Source: Escherichia coli (GTDB lineage: Bacteria > Pseudomonadota > Gammaproteobacteria > Enterobacterales > Enterobacteriaceae). Taken from it: a stretch of 64,000 nt of DNA. The stretch is from NCBI RefSeq assembly GCF_030384885.1, contig NZ_CP128613.1; one strand, 5' to 3'. Under the pieces are notes generated by a model. It did not search any database. It saw only the letters and a list, made by a program, of their open reading frames with translations, and was not told where the DNA came from. The position numbers and the translations under genes were made by a program. Shown piece after piece: positions 7,634 to 13,290 of the stretch. Every line of letters starts with the position of its first letter. The first letter of the stretch is position 1.

Positions 7634-8290
7634 TTAACAATTTCTGGTCGTGCATAAAATCAGGAACTGGAGTGGTGATGTTACTATATCCAGCGTAAGA
7701 GTGACTGGTAGCAGCGCATTAGCGAGGCCGCGCGGAACGCCATCAGTTGCTTTGTACTTATAAAATCCCACCGTAAAGGGTTGATGGAAAACCATCACGT
7801 TTGAGTAATCCGCTTTTTTATTTTTCAGGTGGATAGAGCCTTTCAGGCCGTCAAGTGCCCAGGTACAACGCTGGGTATTACAAATAAAACCATATTGTGT
7901 CGCCAGTGCTTTATCTTCCTCATTATCCCAGTCGTAATAGAGCGTTATTAAACCAGAAAAATTAGTATCACTGCTGCTTAAAATAAATTTCGCGTTATCG
8001 GAAACGGTGATTCTTTCGCCATGAATTGCCGGATCGTTCAGCATTTTAACCACCTCGCCGCCGCCCGTGGTCAACAGATAGTCCAACGATTCACCAACAA
8101 AAACATAGCCTTTCGTACCGTTACTATCCTCTGCCAGCGATAACCCCTTAATCGAGTCTGACCGCCATTGCTCGGCATGTGGAGGACTTGCGGTATTGGA
8201 AACCAACCCCCAAGTGAGACAACCGGTCAACGCAAATGCCAAAGAACACAAACCGGCAGCCTTAAAAAATCCCTTAAAATTCAACTTCAT
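7634..8290 (-). CDS. yidX: predicted lipoprotein YidX
   Basis: 218 aa from internal Met [24 protein letters not shown] (lipobox LTGC); the longer ORF-track N-terminus is rejected. Confidence 0.85.
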
Positions 8291-8427
8291 GACTAATCCT
8301 TTAAACGAGTAGCTAAGCCGTTGAAAGCATACTCTTCTTTCCCTCCTGTTTAGCGCCTGATATCCCTTTTCAGATTTCTGCCCGACGCATGTCATTTTTT
8401 TATGCATTGTTCTTTTTGTGATCTAAA

Positions 8428-8503
8428 TTGTAGTACAACAATATAACTTTGTACTACATTACGCATACAGCAAACGCGAACGTCATCACGCTGGTACTAC
8501 AAA
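8428..8503. promoter_or_regulatory. three copies of a T(T/G)GTA(G/C)TACAA motif upstream of dgoR, candidate DgoR (GntR/FadR family) operators in the dgo promoter region
   Basis: ttgtagtacaa at 8428-8438, tttgtactaca at 8448-8458, tggtactacaa at 8493-8503; partially palindromic. Confidence 0.5.
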
Positions 8504-8567
8504 ATTGCCGCGTTATGCATCGATCGGGGTAAAGTAGAGAAGTACATACAGAGCACAAGGACTCTCC

Positions 8568-9257
8568 ATGACTCTCAATAAAACCGATCGCATCGTCATT
8601 ACGCTGGGCAAACAGATCGTTCACGGCAAATACGTGCCAGGCTCGCCGCTTCCGGCCGAGGCGGAACTTTGTGAGGAGTTTGCAACCTCGCGCAACATCA
8701 TCCGTGAGGTGTTTCGTTCGCTGATGGCGAAGCGGCTGATTGAAATGAAACGTTATCGCGGGGCGTTTGTGGCACCGCGTAACCAGTGGAATTACCTCGA
8801 CACTGACGTACTGCAATGGGTGCTGGAAAACGACTACGACCCACGGCTTATCAGTGCAATGAGCGAAGTGCGAAATCTGGTGGAACCGGCGATTGCCCGT
8901 TGGGCGGCAGAGCGCGCGACTTCCAGCGATCTGGCGCAGATTGAATCAGCGCTGAACGAGATGATCGCCAACAATCAGGACCGCGAAGCGTTTAACGAAG
9001 CGGATATTCGCTATCACGAGGCGGTACTGCAATCAGTGCATAACCCGGTGTTACAGCAACTTAGCATTGCGATTAGTTCATTACAGCGGGCGGTTTTTGA
9101 ACGAACCTGGATGGGCGATGAGGCCAACATGCCGCAAACGCTCCAGGAACATAAGGCGCTGTTTGATGCGATACGGCATCAGGACGGCGATGCGGCAGAG
9201 CAGGCGGCGCTTACCATGATCGCCAGCTCGACACGAAGGTTAAAGGAAATCACATGA
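8568..9257 (+). CDS. dgoR: D-galactonate operon repressor, GntR/FadR family
   Basis: 229 aa; N-terminal winged HTH followed by FCD-type domain. Confidence 0.95.
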   Translation: MTLNKTDRIVITLGKQIVHGKYVPGSPLPAEAELCEEFATSRNIIREVFRSLMAKRLIEMKRYRGAFVAPRNQWNYLDTDVLQWVLENDYDPRLISAMSEVRNLVEPAIARWAAERATSSDLAQIESALNEMIANNQDREAFNEADIRYHEAVLQSVHNPVLQQLSIAISSLQRAVFERTWMGDEANMPQTLQEHKALFDAIRHQDGDAAEQAALTMIASSTRRLKEIT

Positions 9258-10132
9258 CAGCTCGCTACATCGCAATTGACTGGGGATCGACCAATCTGCG
9301 CGCCTGGCTTTATCAGGGCGACCACTGCCTGGACAGCAGGCAATCAGAAGCAGGCGTCACGCGTCTGAACGGAAAATCTCCGGCTGCGGTGCTAGCGGAA
9401 GTGACGACCGACTGGCGTGAAGAGAATACGCCAGTGGTGATGGCAGGAATGGTCGGCAGCAATGTCGGCTGGAAAGTTGCACCGTATTTATCTGTTCCTG
9501 CCCGTTTTTCATCTATTGGCGAACAATTAACGTCTGTTGGCGACAATATCTGGATTATTCCCGGATTATGCGTTTCTCATGATGATAACCACAATGTGAT
9601 GCGCGGCGAAGAAACACAATTGATCGGTGCGCGTGCTCTGGCTCCTTCCTCTCTTTATGTCATGCCCGGTACGCATTGCAAATGGGTGCAGGCCGATAGC
9701 CAGCAAATCAACGATTTTCGCACCGTAATGACCGGTGAGTTACATCATTTACTGTTAAATCACTCATTGATTGGCGCAGGTTTACCGCAGCAGGAAAACT
9801 CTGCCGATGCCTTCGCGGCTGGCCTTGAGCGCGGCCTTAATGCGCCCGCAATATTGCCGCAGCTTTTTGAAGTTCGTGCTTCGCATGTGCTGGGAACACT
9901 TCCCCGTGAACAGGTCAGCGAATTTCTCTCTGGATTGTTGATTGGCGCAGAGGTCGCCAGTATGCGCGACTACGTGGCCCATCAACACGTCATCACCCTT
10001 GTCGCCGGAACATCGCTGACTGCACGCTACCAGCAAGCCTTTCAGGCGATGGGTTGCGACGTGACGGCGGTGGCGGGCGACACGGCATTTCAGGCTGGTA
10101 TAAGGAGCATCGCTCATGCAGTGGCAAACTAA
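9254..10132 (+). CDS. dgoK: 2-dehydro-3-deoxygalactonokinase
   Basis: 292 aa; overlaps dgoR stop (ATGA); operon context. Confidence 0.95.
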   Translation: MTARYIAIDWGSTNLRAWLYQGDHCLDSRQSEAGVTRLNGKSPAAVLAEVTTDWREENTPVVMAGMVGSNVGWKVAPYLSVPARFSSIGEQLTSVGDNIWIIPGLCVSHDDNHNVMRGEETQLIGARALAPSSLYVMPGTHCKWVQADSQQINDFRTVMTGELHHLLLNHSLIGAGLPQQENSADAFAAGLERGLNAPAILPQLFEVRASHVLGTLPREQVSEFLSGLLIGAEVASMRDYVAHQHVITLVAGTSLTARYQQAFQAMGCDVTAVAGDTAFQAGIRSIAHAVAN

Positions 10133-10733
10133 ACTCCCGCTGATCGCCATTTTGCGCGGCATTACGCCCGACGAGGCGCTGGCGCATGTTGGCGCGGTGA
10201 TTGACGCTGGGTTCGACGCGATAGAAATCCCGCTGAACTCTCCACTATGGGAACAAAGCATTCCCGCCATCGTTGATGCGTATGGCGACAAAGCGTTGAT
10301 TGGCGCAGGTACGGTACTGAAACCTGAACAGGTCGATGCGCTCGCCAGGATGGGCTGTCAGCTCATCGTTACGCCCAATATCCATAGTGAAGTGATCCGC
10401 CGCGCGGTGGGCTATGGCATGACCGTTTGCCCCGGCTGCGCGACGGCGACAGAAGCCTTTACCGCGATCGACGCGGGCGCTCAGGCGCTGAAAATATTCC
10501 CGTCATCGGCTTTTGGGCCGCAATACATCAAAGCGTTAAAAGCGGTATTACCGCAGGACATCCCGGTCTTTGCCGTAGGCGGTGTGACGCCAGAAAACCT
10601 GGCGCAGTGGATAGACGCAGGTTGTGCAGGGGCGGGCTTAGGCAGCGATCTCTATCGCGCCGGGCAGTCCGTAGAACGCACCGCGCAGCAGGCAGCAGCA
10701 TTTGTTAAGGCGTATCGAGAGGCAGTGCAATGA
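10116..10733 (+). CDS. dgoA: 2-dehydro-3-deoxy-6-phosphogalactonate aldolase
   Basis: 205 aa; KDPG-aldolase-like sequence; overlaps dgoK end. Confidence 0.95.
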
Positions 10734-11878
10734 AAATCACCAACATTACTACGTATCGTTTACCTCCCCGCTGGATGTTCCTGAAAATTGAAACTGATGA
10801 AGGCGTGGTCGGTTGGGGCGAGCCCGTGATCGAAGGCCGCGCCCGCACGGTGGAAGCGGCAGTTCACGAGCTGGGTGACTATTTGATTGGTCAGGATCCA
10901 TCGCGCATCAATGACTTATGGCAAGTGATGTATCGCGCCGGATTTTATCGTGGCGGTCCGATTCTGATGAGCGCCATCGCCGGGATCGACCAGGCGTTAT
11001 GGGATATCAAAGGTAAAGTGCTGAATGCGCCGGTCTGGCAACTGATGGGTGGCCTGGTTCGCGACAAAATTAAAGCCTACAGTTGGGTCGGCGGCGATCG
11101 TCCGGCGGATGTTATCGACGGCATTAAAACGCTACGCGAAATCGGCTTCGATACCTTCAAACTGAACGGTTGTGAAGAGCTGGGATTGATTGATAACTCC
11201 CGCGCGGTAGATGCGGCGGTCAACACCGTGGCACAAATTCGTGAAGCTTTTGGCAATCAGATTGAGTTTGGTCTTGATTTCCACGGTCGCGTCAGCGCGC
11301 CGATGGCGAAAGTGCTGATTAAAGAACTGGAACCGTATCGCCCTCTGTTTATTGAAGAACCGGTGCTGGCGGAACAAGCCGAATACTACCCGAAACTGGC
11401 GGCACAAACGCATATTCCACTGGCGGCGGGTGAGCGCATGTTCTCACGCTTCGATTTTAAACGCGTGCTGGAAGCTGGCGGTATTTCGATTCTGCAACCG
11501 GATCTCTCCCACGCAGGCGGTATTACCGAATGCTACAAAATTGCCGGAATGGCGGAAGCCTATGACGTGACCCTTGCGCCGCACTGTCCGCTCGGCCCGA
11601 TTGCACTGGCGGCTTGCCTGCATATCGACTTTGTTTCCTATAACGCGGTACTTCAGGAACAAAGTATGGGCATTCATTACAACAAAGGCGCGGAGTTACT
11701 CGACTTTGTGAAAAATAAAGAAGACTTCAGCATGGTCGGCGGCTTCTTTAAACCATTAACGAAACCGGGCTTAGGCGTGGAAATCGACGAAACCAAAGTC
11801 ATTGAGTTCAGTAAAAATGCCCCGGACTGGCGTAATCCGCTCTGGCGTCATGAAGATAACAGCGTAGCAGAGTGGTAA
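10730..11878 (+). CDS. dgoD: D-galactonate dehydratase (enolase superfamily)
   Basis: 382 aa [32 protein letters not shown]. Confidence 0.95.
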
Positions 11879-11997
11879 TTCCTGCCACGTAAGCCCCTCA
11901 TCGGGCACTAAAACAGCAATACAAAAATATAACCCTCTGTACATTACAGGGCATGGTGAGCGGCTTCGCTATGCCCAAAATCTGGAGAAAGCTCGCT

Positions 11998-13290
11998 ATG
12001 GATATTCCCGTTAATGCAGCAAAACCGGGGCGTCGGCGTTATCTGACGCTGGTGATGATCTTTATTACGGTGGTCATTTGTTATGTTGACCGCGCTAACC
12101 TGGCCGTGGCTTCCGCCCATATTCAGGAAGAGTTCGGCATTACCAAAGCGCAAATGGGCTATGTATTTTCGGCCTTCGCCTGGCTTTATACCTTATGTCA
12201 GATCCCCGGCGGTTGGTTTTTAGATCGCGTAGGTTCTCGCGTGACTTATTTTATTGCGATATTTGGCTGGTCAGTGGCGACGTTATTCCAGGGCTTTGCC
12301 ACGGGCTTAATGTCATTAATTGGTCTGCGTGCGATAACCGGTATTTTCGAAGCGCCCGCGTTCCCGACCAATAACCGGATGGTGACCAGCTGGTTCCCGG
12401 AACATGAACGCGCTTCTGCCGTGGGTTTTTATACGTCTGGTCAGTTTGTCGGTCTGGCGTTTCTGACTCCGCTGCTGATCTGGATTCAGGAAATGTTGAG
12501 CTGGCACTGGGTGTTCATTGTCACCGGCGGTATCGGCATTATCTGGTCGCTGATTTGGTTTAAGGTTTATCAGCCGCCGCGCCTGACCAAAGGCATTAGC
12601 AAAGCTGAACTGGATTACATTCGTGACGGCGGCGGTCTGGTGGATGGCGATGCGCCAGTGAAAAAAGAGGCGCGTCAGCCGCTAACCGCCAAAGACTGGA
12701 AACTGGTGTTCCATCGTAAACTGATCGGCGTCTATCTTGGGCAATTTGCGGTGGCTTCTACACTGTGGTTCTTCTTAACCTGGTTCCCGAACTATTTAAC
12801 CCAGGAAAAAGGAATCACAGCGCTGAAAGCGGGCTTTATGACCACGGTGCCATTCCTTGCGGCGTTTGTTGGCGTCCTGCTCTCAGGCTGGGTCGCGGAT
12901 CTGCTGGTACGTAAGGGCTTTTCACTGGGCTTTGCGCGTAAAACGCCGATTATCTGCGGTTTGCTGATCTCCACCTGCATTATGGGTGCTAACTACACCA
13001 ACGATCCGATGATGATTATGTGCCTGATGGCGCTGGCATTCTTCGGCAACGGTTTTGCTTCGATTACCTGGTCGTTAGTCTCTTCTCTGGCACCGATGCG
13101 GCTGATTGGTTTAACCGGTGGCGTGTTTAACTTCGCCGGTGGTCTGGGCGGCATCACCGTTCCGCTGGTGGTGGGGTACCTGGCGCAGGGTTACGGTTTC
13201 GCGCCTGCACTGGTTTATATCTCCGCCGTCGCGTTGATTGGCGCGCTCTCTTACATCCTGCTGGTGGGCGATGTGAAGCGCGTTGGATAA
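11998..13290 (+). CDS. dgoT: D-galactonate transporter, MFS
   Basis: 430 aa from ATG at 11998 ([22 protein letters not shown]); 12-TM-like hydrophobic profile. Confidence 0.9.

Follow-up and report, generated by a model that had tools for sequence, protein, structure and literature searches.

Three palindromic repeats upstream of dgoR in Escherichia coli: two established DgoR operators and a conserved, predicted third site

The D-galactonate regulator DgoR is described as a dimer that represses the dgo promoter of Escherichia coli, and two dimers likely bind at two operators termed IR1 and IR2 (PMC11705089). In the published model, which goes back to Singh et al. 2019 as related in PMC11705089 and PMC12288454, the dgo promoter is overlapped by two closely spaced inverted repeats, of which IR1 is perfect and IR2 carries one mismatch, and binding of D-galactonate at DgoR's C-terminal domain leads to release of the DNA. 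The IR1 sequence used to model DgoR-DNA complexes in both papers is CTAAATTGTAGTACAACAATAT. Independently, Sort-Seq combined with DNA-affinity mass spectrometry resolved a repressor footprint that depends on DgoR and extends from −140 to −110 relative to the dgoR ATG; this footprint disappeared in a dgoR deletion and in galactonate, and affinity purification with DNA covering −145 to −110 enriched DgoR (Belliveau et al. 2018, PMC6003448). The Reg-Seq study names an “upstream” and a “right” DgoR site, which we read as IR1 and IR2, and reports no undiscovered sites at this promoter.

A different count was given by comparative genomics. Suvorova, Korostelev and Gelfand (2015; PMC4494728, S1 File, FadR sheet) predict that E. 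coli b4479 has three DgoR sites, with CACGCTGGTACTACAAAGTTG as the third, and their table shows three sites in an unchanged order in seven relatives. These are E. fergusonii and Shigella flexneri together with Salmonella (third site TAGTACTACAA), Klebsiella pneumoniae (TAGTAGTACAA), Enterobacter 638 (TTGTACTGCAA), Cronobacter (TTGTACTTCAA) and Serratia (TTGTGCTGCAA). The FadR-subfamily consensus in that work consists of TKGT and ACMA boxes, and for DgoR the GT and AC are separated by 3 nt (PMC4494728). The table is a prediction, and it carries no discussion of the spacing, strength or role of the third site.

The locus considered here lies in a stretch of 64,000 nucleotides from E. coli (contig NZ_CP128613.1), referred to below as the window, with all positions counted from its first letter. 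The region that holds the repeats shows 100% identity to E. coli 2013C-4282 and, of 5426 complete E. coli genomes, 5424 contain it, annotated yidX/dgoR. RefSeq annotation of the window gives the gene order gyrB-yidB-yidA-yidX-like (minus strand), then dgoR-dgoK-dgoA-dgoD-dgoT (plus strand) and cbrA. The features to which the text refers are as follows.

7634 to 8290, minus strand: yidX-like divergent gene (RefSeq), with its start codon at 8290.
8415 to 8436, no strand assigned: class II CRP site with left half TGTGA at 8418–8422 and centre at 8425.5; its 22-bp extent is presumed.
8428 to 8438, no strand assigned: S1, the DgoR operator IR1, TTGTAGTACAA, a perfect 5+1+5 palindrome equal to the published IR1 probe.
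8449 to 8459, no strand assigned: S2, the DgoR operator IR2, TTGTACTACAT, with a single asymmetry at its last base.
8455 to 8460, plus strand: −10 element TACATT of the galactonate-inducible, CRP-dependent promoter, the same hexamer as the published weak −10 (PMC6003448).
8492 to 8502, no strand assigned: S3, the third, predicted DgoR site, TGGTACTACAA, with a single asymmetry at position 2.
8528 to 8536, plus strand: conserved GGTAAAGTA containing the −10-like TAAAGT (8530–8535), kept in 61 of 79 sequences.
8568 to 9257, plus strand: dgoR, first gene of dgoRKADT, encoding a GntR/FadR-family repressor of 229 aa (ORF list, RefSeq, Pfam).
9254 to 13290, plus strand: dgoK, dgoA, dgoD and dgoT, the structural genes controlled from the operator region (ORFs, RefSeq).

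The gene at 8568 had been named dgoR in an initial annotation made from the sequence, and this name is borne out by RefSeq and by the domains of the product. The open reading frame at 8568–9254 matches Pfam GntR (PF00392, 2.9e-14) and FCD (PF07729, 2.1e-27), and the combination of a GntR winged helix with an FCD effector domain places DgoR in the FadR subfamily. All three repeats lie in the 277-bp divergent intergenic region between the yidX start at 8290 and the dgoR ATG at 8568. The limits of the neighbouring genes show two peculiarities. The minus-strand open reading frame at 7634–8407 would encode 257 aa, compared with 218 aa for the RefSeq yidX-like gene that starts at 8290; the longer version, if real, would extend to a conserved TTGT at 8407, and the yidX-like protein gave no match in Pfam. 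Downstream, dgoT (plus strand, 11953–13290) and cbrA (minus strand, from 13251) share 40 bp at their 3′ ends, 13251–13290.

How do the three repeats compare with the published operators? The repeats S1 and S2 correspond to IR1 and IR2 in sequence, in their overlap with the CRP-dependent, galactonate-inducible promoter and in relief by D-galactonate. Window positions 8423–8444 equal the IR1 probe CTAAATTGTAGTACAACAATAT letter for letter, and the published footprint at −140 to −110 translates to 8428–8458, spanning S1 and S2. Relative to the dgoR ATG, S1 stands at −140, S2 at −119 and S3 at −76. The three sites in the window also equal the DgoR_ECO entries of the Suvorova table save for a single flanking base beside each of S2 and S3; the one at S3 is a difference between the K-12 entry (AAAGTTG) and the window (AAAATTG). 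By contrast, S3 falls outside the published two-repeat model. The proposal that these repeats form the DgoR operator set is thus upheld by the identical IR1 probe, by the fit of S2 to the description of IR2 and by the presence of all three sites in the 2015 table, and we consider it very probable that all three serve as the operators through which DgoR acts on E. coli dgoRKADT, S3 being assigned by prediction and conservation. Since S1 and S2 are experimentally established and S3 had already been predicted by comparative genomics, the set is a known one. A characterised regulatory region has been found again, and the value of the case is that of a positive control for reading operators from sequence alone.

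The details of the initial annotation needed some correction. It had placed the repeats at 8428–8438, 8448–8458 and 8493–8503, of which the first is exact and the other two are shifted by a single base, and it had given the motif as T(T/G)GTA(G/C)TACAA, which S1 and S3 follow whereas S2 ends in T instead of A. It had described the motif as partially palindromic; S1 is a perfect 5+1+5 palindrome, and S2 and S3 carry one asymmetric position each; the perfect-palindrome counterpart of S3 would read TTGTACTACAA. When compared with the FadR-subfamily consensus TKGT-N3-ACMA, S1 (TTGT AGT ACAA) and S3 (TGGT ACT ACAA) match completely, and S2 (TTGT ACT ACAT) matches except at its last base, which is part of the −10 element TACATT. 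Centre-to-centre distances are 21 bp between S1 and S2, 43 bp between S2 and S3 and 64 bp between S1 and S3, equal to 2.0, 4.1 and 6.1 helical turns, so that the three share a single helical face.

These repeats are more numerous than chance would give. With at most one mismatch, the motif has four matches in the 64-kb window, three of them inside these 75 bp, while 64 kb of dinucleotide-shuffled sequence contains 2.54 strand-matches on average; the Poisson probability of three sites in the 277-bp intergenic region, calculated from the shuffle rate, is ~1e-7. A position weight matrix trained only on the orthologous S1 and S2 sites from 79 upstream sequences ranks S1 (19.9 bits), S2 (17.8 bits) and S3 (14.7 bits) first to third in the window, followed by a next best score of 10.6 bits. 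That score belongs to TTGTAGAACAA at 35389–35399, inside a hypothetical-protein gene, which is the sole other near-match in the window; owing to its position in coding sequence and a mismatch in its core, we take it to be probably a chance match and not an operator.

The same shuffle rate bears on whether S3 itself could be a chance match, or a decaying relic without function, such that S1 and S2 alone matter. This would agree with a published model that requires just two repeats, and with reporter-based dissection by Sort-Seq and Reg-Seq, neither of which flagged S3. However, only ~0.006 chance matches are expected in the ~140 bp downstream of S2, and the argument against coincidence becomes stronger when other species are considered. 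For this comparison, 80 dgoR loci were fetched from Enterobacterales genomes, and 78 usable upstream regions were aligned with that of the window to give 79 sequences. The alignment contains five sharp islands of conservation, namely TTTTGTGATC together with S1, S2 together with the −10 element, S3, GGTAAAGTA at 8528–8536, and the ribosome-binding site. Exact TTGTAGTACAA is present at S1 in 73 of the 79 sequences, while S2 and S3 are found with at most one mismatch in 72 and 67, respectively. The columns of S3 average 1.62 bits each, as against 0.62 (maximum 1.0) in flanking 11-column windows, and S2 and S3 are both invariant among seven divergent E. coli alleles. Conservation of S3 extends across Enterobacteriaceae and Erwiniaceae, whereas the 30 bp to each side are not conserved, and its position is fixed within 1 bp. 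A chance match or relic is for these reasons improbable, and our comparisons support S3 as a real, selected element.

Spacing, too, is almost rigid. The distance from TGTGA to S1 is 10 bp and that from S1 to S2 is 21 bp in all 79 sequences; S2 and S3 are 43 bp apart in 70 and 42 or 44 bp apart in the others, and 38 bp separate S3 from TAAAGT in 77. The interval between S2 and S3 is poorly conserved in sequence and nearly constant in length. Only between TAAAGT and the ATG is length free, ranging from 36 to 69 bp.

These spacings can be set against the promoter architecture, for which positions rest on Belliveau et al. 2018 and on geometry. A consensus promoter and terminator scan of 8250–8650 returned no match, both promoters being too divergent for the tool. 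Belliveau et al. (2018, PMC6003448) place a TGTGA CRP half-site between −160 and −140 and assign class II activation; in the window, the degenerate right half of this CRP site overlaps both S1 and the −35 region. The −10 element reads TACATT in 58 of 79 sequences and TACTAT in 11. Given the geometry of this −10 and a CRP centre at −41.5, the inducible transcript would start near 8467, in which case the centres of S1, S2 and S3 would fall near −34, −13 and +30 of the inducible promoter, respectively.

Besides this promoter, RNA polymerase has a second site, reported at −30 to −70 from the ATG and active in glucose (PMC6003448). The conserved TAAAGT is probably the −10 element of this basal downstream site detected by Sort-Seq, and TTGCCG at 8505–8510, 2 bp past the end of S3, is likely its −35 element, so that S3 would be centred at about −45 of the basal promoter. 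The TTGTAC of S3 was considered as a −35 element and rejected, because TAAAGT, 32 bp away, is too distant and TATGCA, the other candidate −10, lacks conservation.

Two further features lie at the upstream end of this region. A conserved TTGT at 8407–8410, with a conserved T-run after it at 8414–8417, precedes the TTGT of S1 by exactly 21 bp, the S1-S2 period; it has the look of a DgoR half-site or may instead provide an alpha-CTD/UP contact at the class II CRP promoter. Within the CRP half-site TGTGA, a GATC at 8420–8423 lies 5 bp upstream of S1 with its adenine at −147 from the ATG, and GTGATC is present in 71 of the 79 upstream sequences. A hemimethylated GATC upstream of dgoR in Salmonella is also at −147 (PMC7708049), and blocking of Dam by bound CRP or DgoR would explain such undermethylation.

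According to the literature, DgoR dimers occupy S1 (IR1) and S2 (IR2) when D-galactonate is absent. With S1 lying over the −35 region and the CRP site's right half, and S2 over the −10 element TACATT, bound DgoR therefore excludes CRP and RNA polymerase, and the system is autoregulatory because dgoR is the first gene transcribed. What would a third site add to this arrangement? S3 is predicted to be a weaker DgoR site, lying downstream of both, four turns of the helix from S2 and six from S1. Its contribution to repression could be auxiliary in one of two ways: it may act on the inducible promoter, as a roadblock or through same-face cooperative binding with S1 and S2, or it may tune the basal promoter that supplies DgoR. 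The most likely reading is that S3 is a weak auxiliary operator, situated near +30 with respect to the inducible promoter and near −45 with respect to the basal one.

The pattern of mismatches in S3 allows a more specific version of this reading to be formulated. Across the 79 sequences S3 is never a perfect palindrome, and in 67 it carries exactly one mismatch. Variation is mainly at positions 2 and 8 and takes two forms. In the first (61 sequences), T at position 2 is combined with G or T at position 8; the second, with A or G at position 2 and A at position 8, is seen in 16 sequences, among them those of Escherichia, Salmonella, Citrobacter and Klebsiella. This pattern derives in part from shared ancestry, yet it would fit selection for a weak site. 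We hypothesize, tentatively and as a possibility short of an expectation, that S3 is a deliberately weak third operator, kept by selection one mismatch from perfect, that would serve mainly to throttle the basal promoter supplying DgoR and not to shut the inducible one. The rigid spacing between S3 and TAAAGT, together with the Sort-Seq result that the downstream polymerase site is the active one under repression (PMC6003448), suggests that such throttling would take place when DgoR is abundant. The result would be autoregulation in two tiers, in which the inducible promoter is controlled by strong sites and the constitutive one by a weak site with a homeostatic role; we found no experimental paper that proposes two-tier autoregulation with S3.

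An alternative hypothesis is that S3 is conserved for another reason, as the site of a different factor or as an upstream element of the basal promoter, and is merely DgoR-like. In favour of this is the rigid 38 bp to TAAAGT. Moreover, S3 in most genera is TTGTACTGCAA or TTGTACTTCAA, and this commonest form disrupts the AC box, which is the most conserved contact of the family (PMC4494728) and whose loss counts against a DgoR site. In Enterobacter, Lelliottia, Leclercia and many other genera, S3 is also the core of a longer, 23-bp symmetry, TCACGTTTGTACTGCAAAAGTGA, which S1 and S2 do not have; it is seen in loci L002 to L015 of our set and in many others, in the region aligned to window 8486–8509, and its flanks pair in 64% of cells compared with 28–49% in slid controls. 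The text of the Sort-Seq study points the same way, as the one repressor signal it reports is at −140 to −110, with nothing of the kind at −76 to −66 (PMC6003448).

Several observations speak for DgoR nonetheless. The core of S3 scores 14.7 bits on a matrix built from S1 and S2 only, third in 64 kb, and the positions at which it varies are not peculiar to it, since position 2 varies also at S2 in other species, and natural alleles of E. coli and Shigella vary at position 8 of S1. A palindromic protein site is expected to have C or G at its centre, and at the centre of S3, 78 of the 79 sequences have C or G and one has A. The spacing to S1 and S2 is conserved and in helical phase, and the extended symmetry TCACGTTTGTACTGCAAAAGTGA is missing from the E. 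coli window. On this balance we regard a function independent of DgoR as unlikely, and prefer S3 as a weak auxiliary DgoR operator. The TCACGTTTGTACTGCAAAAGTGA flanks themselves are better seen as an extension of the palindrome, which leaves room, at a comparably low probability, for a different protein or for extended contacts by DgoR in those genera.

The symmetry around S3 could also act at the level of RNA, with the DgoR-like motif displayed in the hairpin loop of an inducible leader of ~100 nt. Several Enterobacter-like genera carry an inverted repeat of the form CCTCAC...GTGAGG around S3, and the E. coli leader alone folds to −16.7 kcal/mol. However, RNAalifold found no consensus structure for 8462–8545 in the 79 sequences. 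In the flanking pairs, any of C, A, T and G may stand on the 5′ side while the G on the 3′ side is fixed, so the changes are not compensatory, and E. coli is without the stem. Rfam gave no significant match; its one weak hit, to a eukaryotic lncRNA model at 8512–8597 on the minus strand (E = 0.27; 18 bits versus a gathering threshold of 55), lies outside S3. For lack of a consensus structure, compensatory change or a significant Rfam match, the hairpin was rejected, and we consider a role of S3 as RNA very improbable.

What does the experimental literature say of a third site? The experimental DgoR literature found in our search, which had the full text of Singh et al. 2019 outside its reach, describes two inverted repeats and never three, and a full-text search for the S3 sequence returned no dgo-related paper beyond the Suvorova supplement. 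A recent EMSA probe for DgoR is 55 nt long and contains IR1 and IR2 only, being too short to reach S3. One constraint on mechanism also comes from this literature: because DgoR is reported as a dimer, looping between the sites would require a higher oligomer, and none has been reported. S3 was predicted in 2015 and is missing from the current two-repeat model, yet it is strongly conserved in sequence, in strength class and in spacing.

Abstracts that include that of PMC12288454 report that galactonate use and dgoR variation influence the fitness of E. coli in the gut. A complete operator map would therefore help in interpreting natural promoter variants and in building galactonate biosensors. 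Natural variants of the strongest operator do occur. E. coli GmM077 (L084 in our set) carries the S1 allele TTGTAGTGCAA, in which the AC box is disrupted, and S1 of Shigella flexneri is given as TTGTAGCGCAA in the Suvorova table (PMC4494728); both could derepress dgo in part. A separate peculiarity of the collected sequences is a record titled Chryseobacterium sp. 18061 (L056, CACSKA010000004.1), which holds an Enterobacteriaceae-type dgoR locus with the same layout of S1, S2 and S3 and a DgoR 90% identical to that of E. coli; the record is likely a contaminated or mislabelled assembly.

The closest parallels to a dgo region with three sites are found among related regulators. LldR, the FadR-subfamily regulator of E. 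coli lldPRD, resembles the dgo layout in having operators O1 and O2 upstream and downstream of the transcription start, and repression by LldR reportedly needs sites at the same angular orientation, with phase-dependent looping. It differs from the dgo system in having two sites instead of three, and the two strong sites of DgoR both lie on the core promoter. Like looping or cooperative auxiliary operators such as lac O2/O3 and LldR O1/O2, the dgo sites share one helix face at a conserved distance. A looser likeness exists to NanR of the GntR family, where, according to passages of PMC8012715, three dimers bind three repeats in the (GGTATA)3 operator, so that three repeats again serve one promoter of a GntR-family repressor. 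The NanR repeats, however, are contiguous direct hexamers that are bound cooperatively, whereas the DgoR sites are 11-bp palindromes placed 21 and 43 bp apart.
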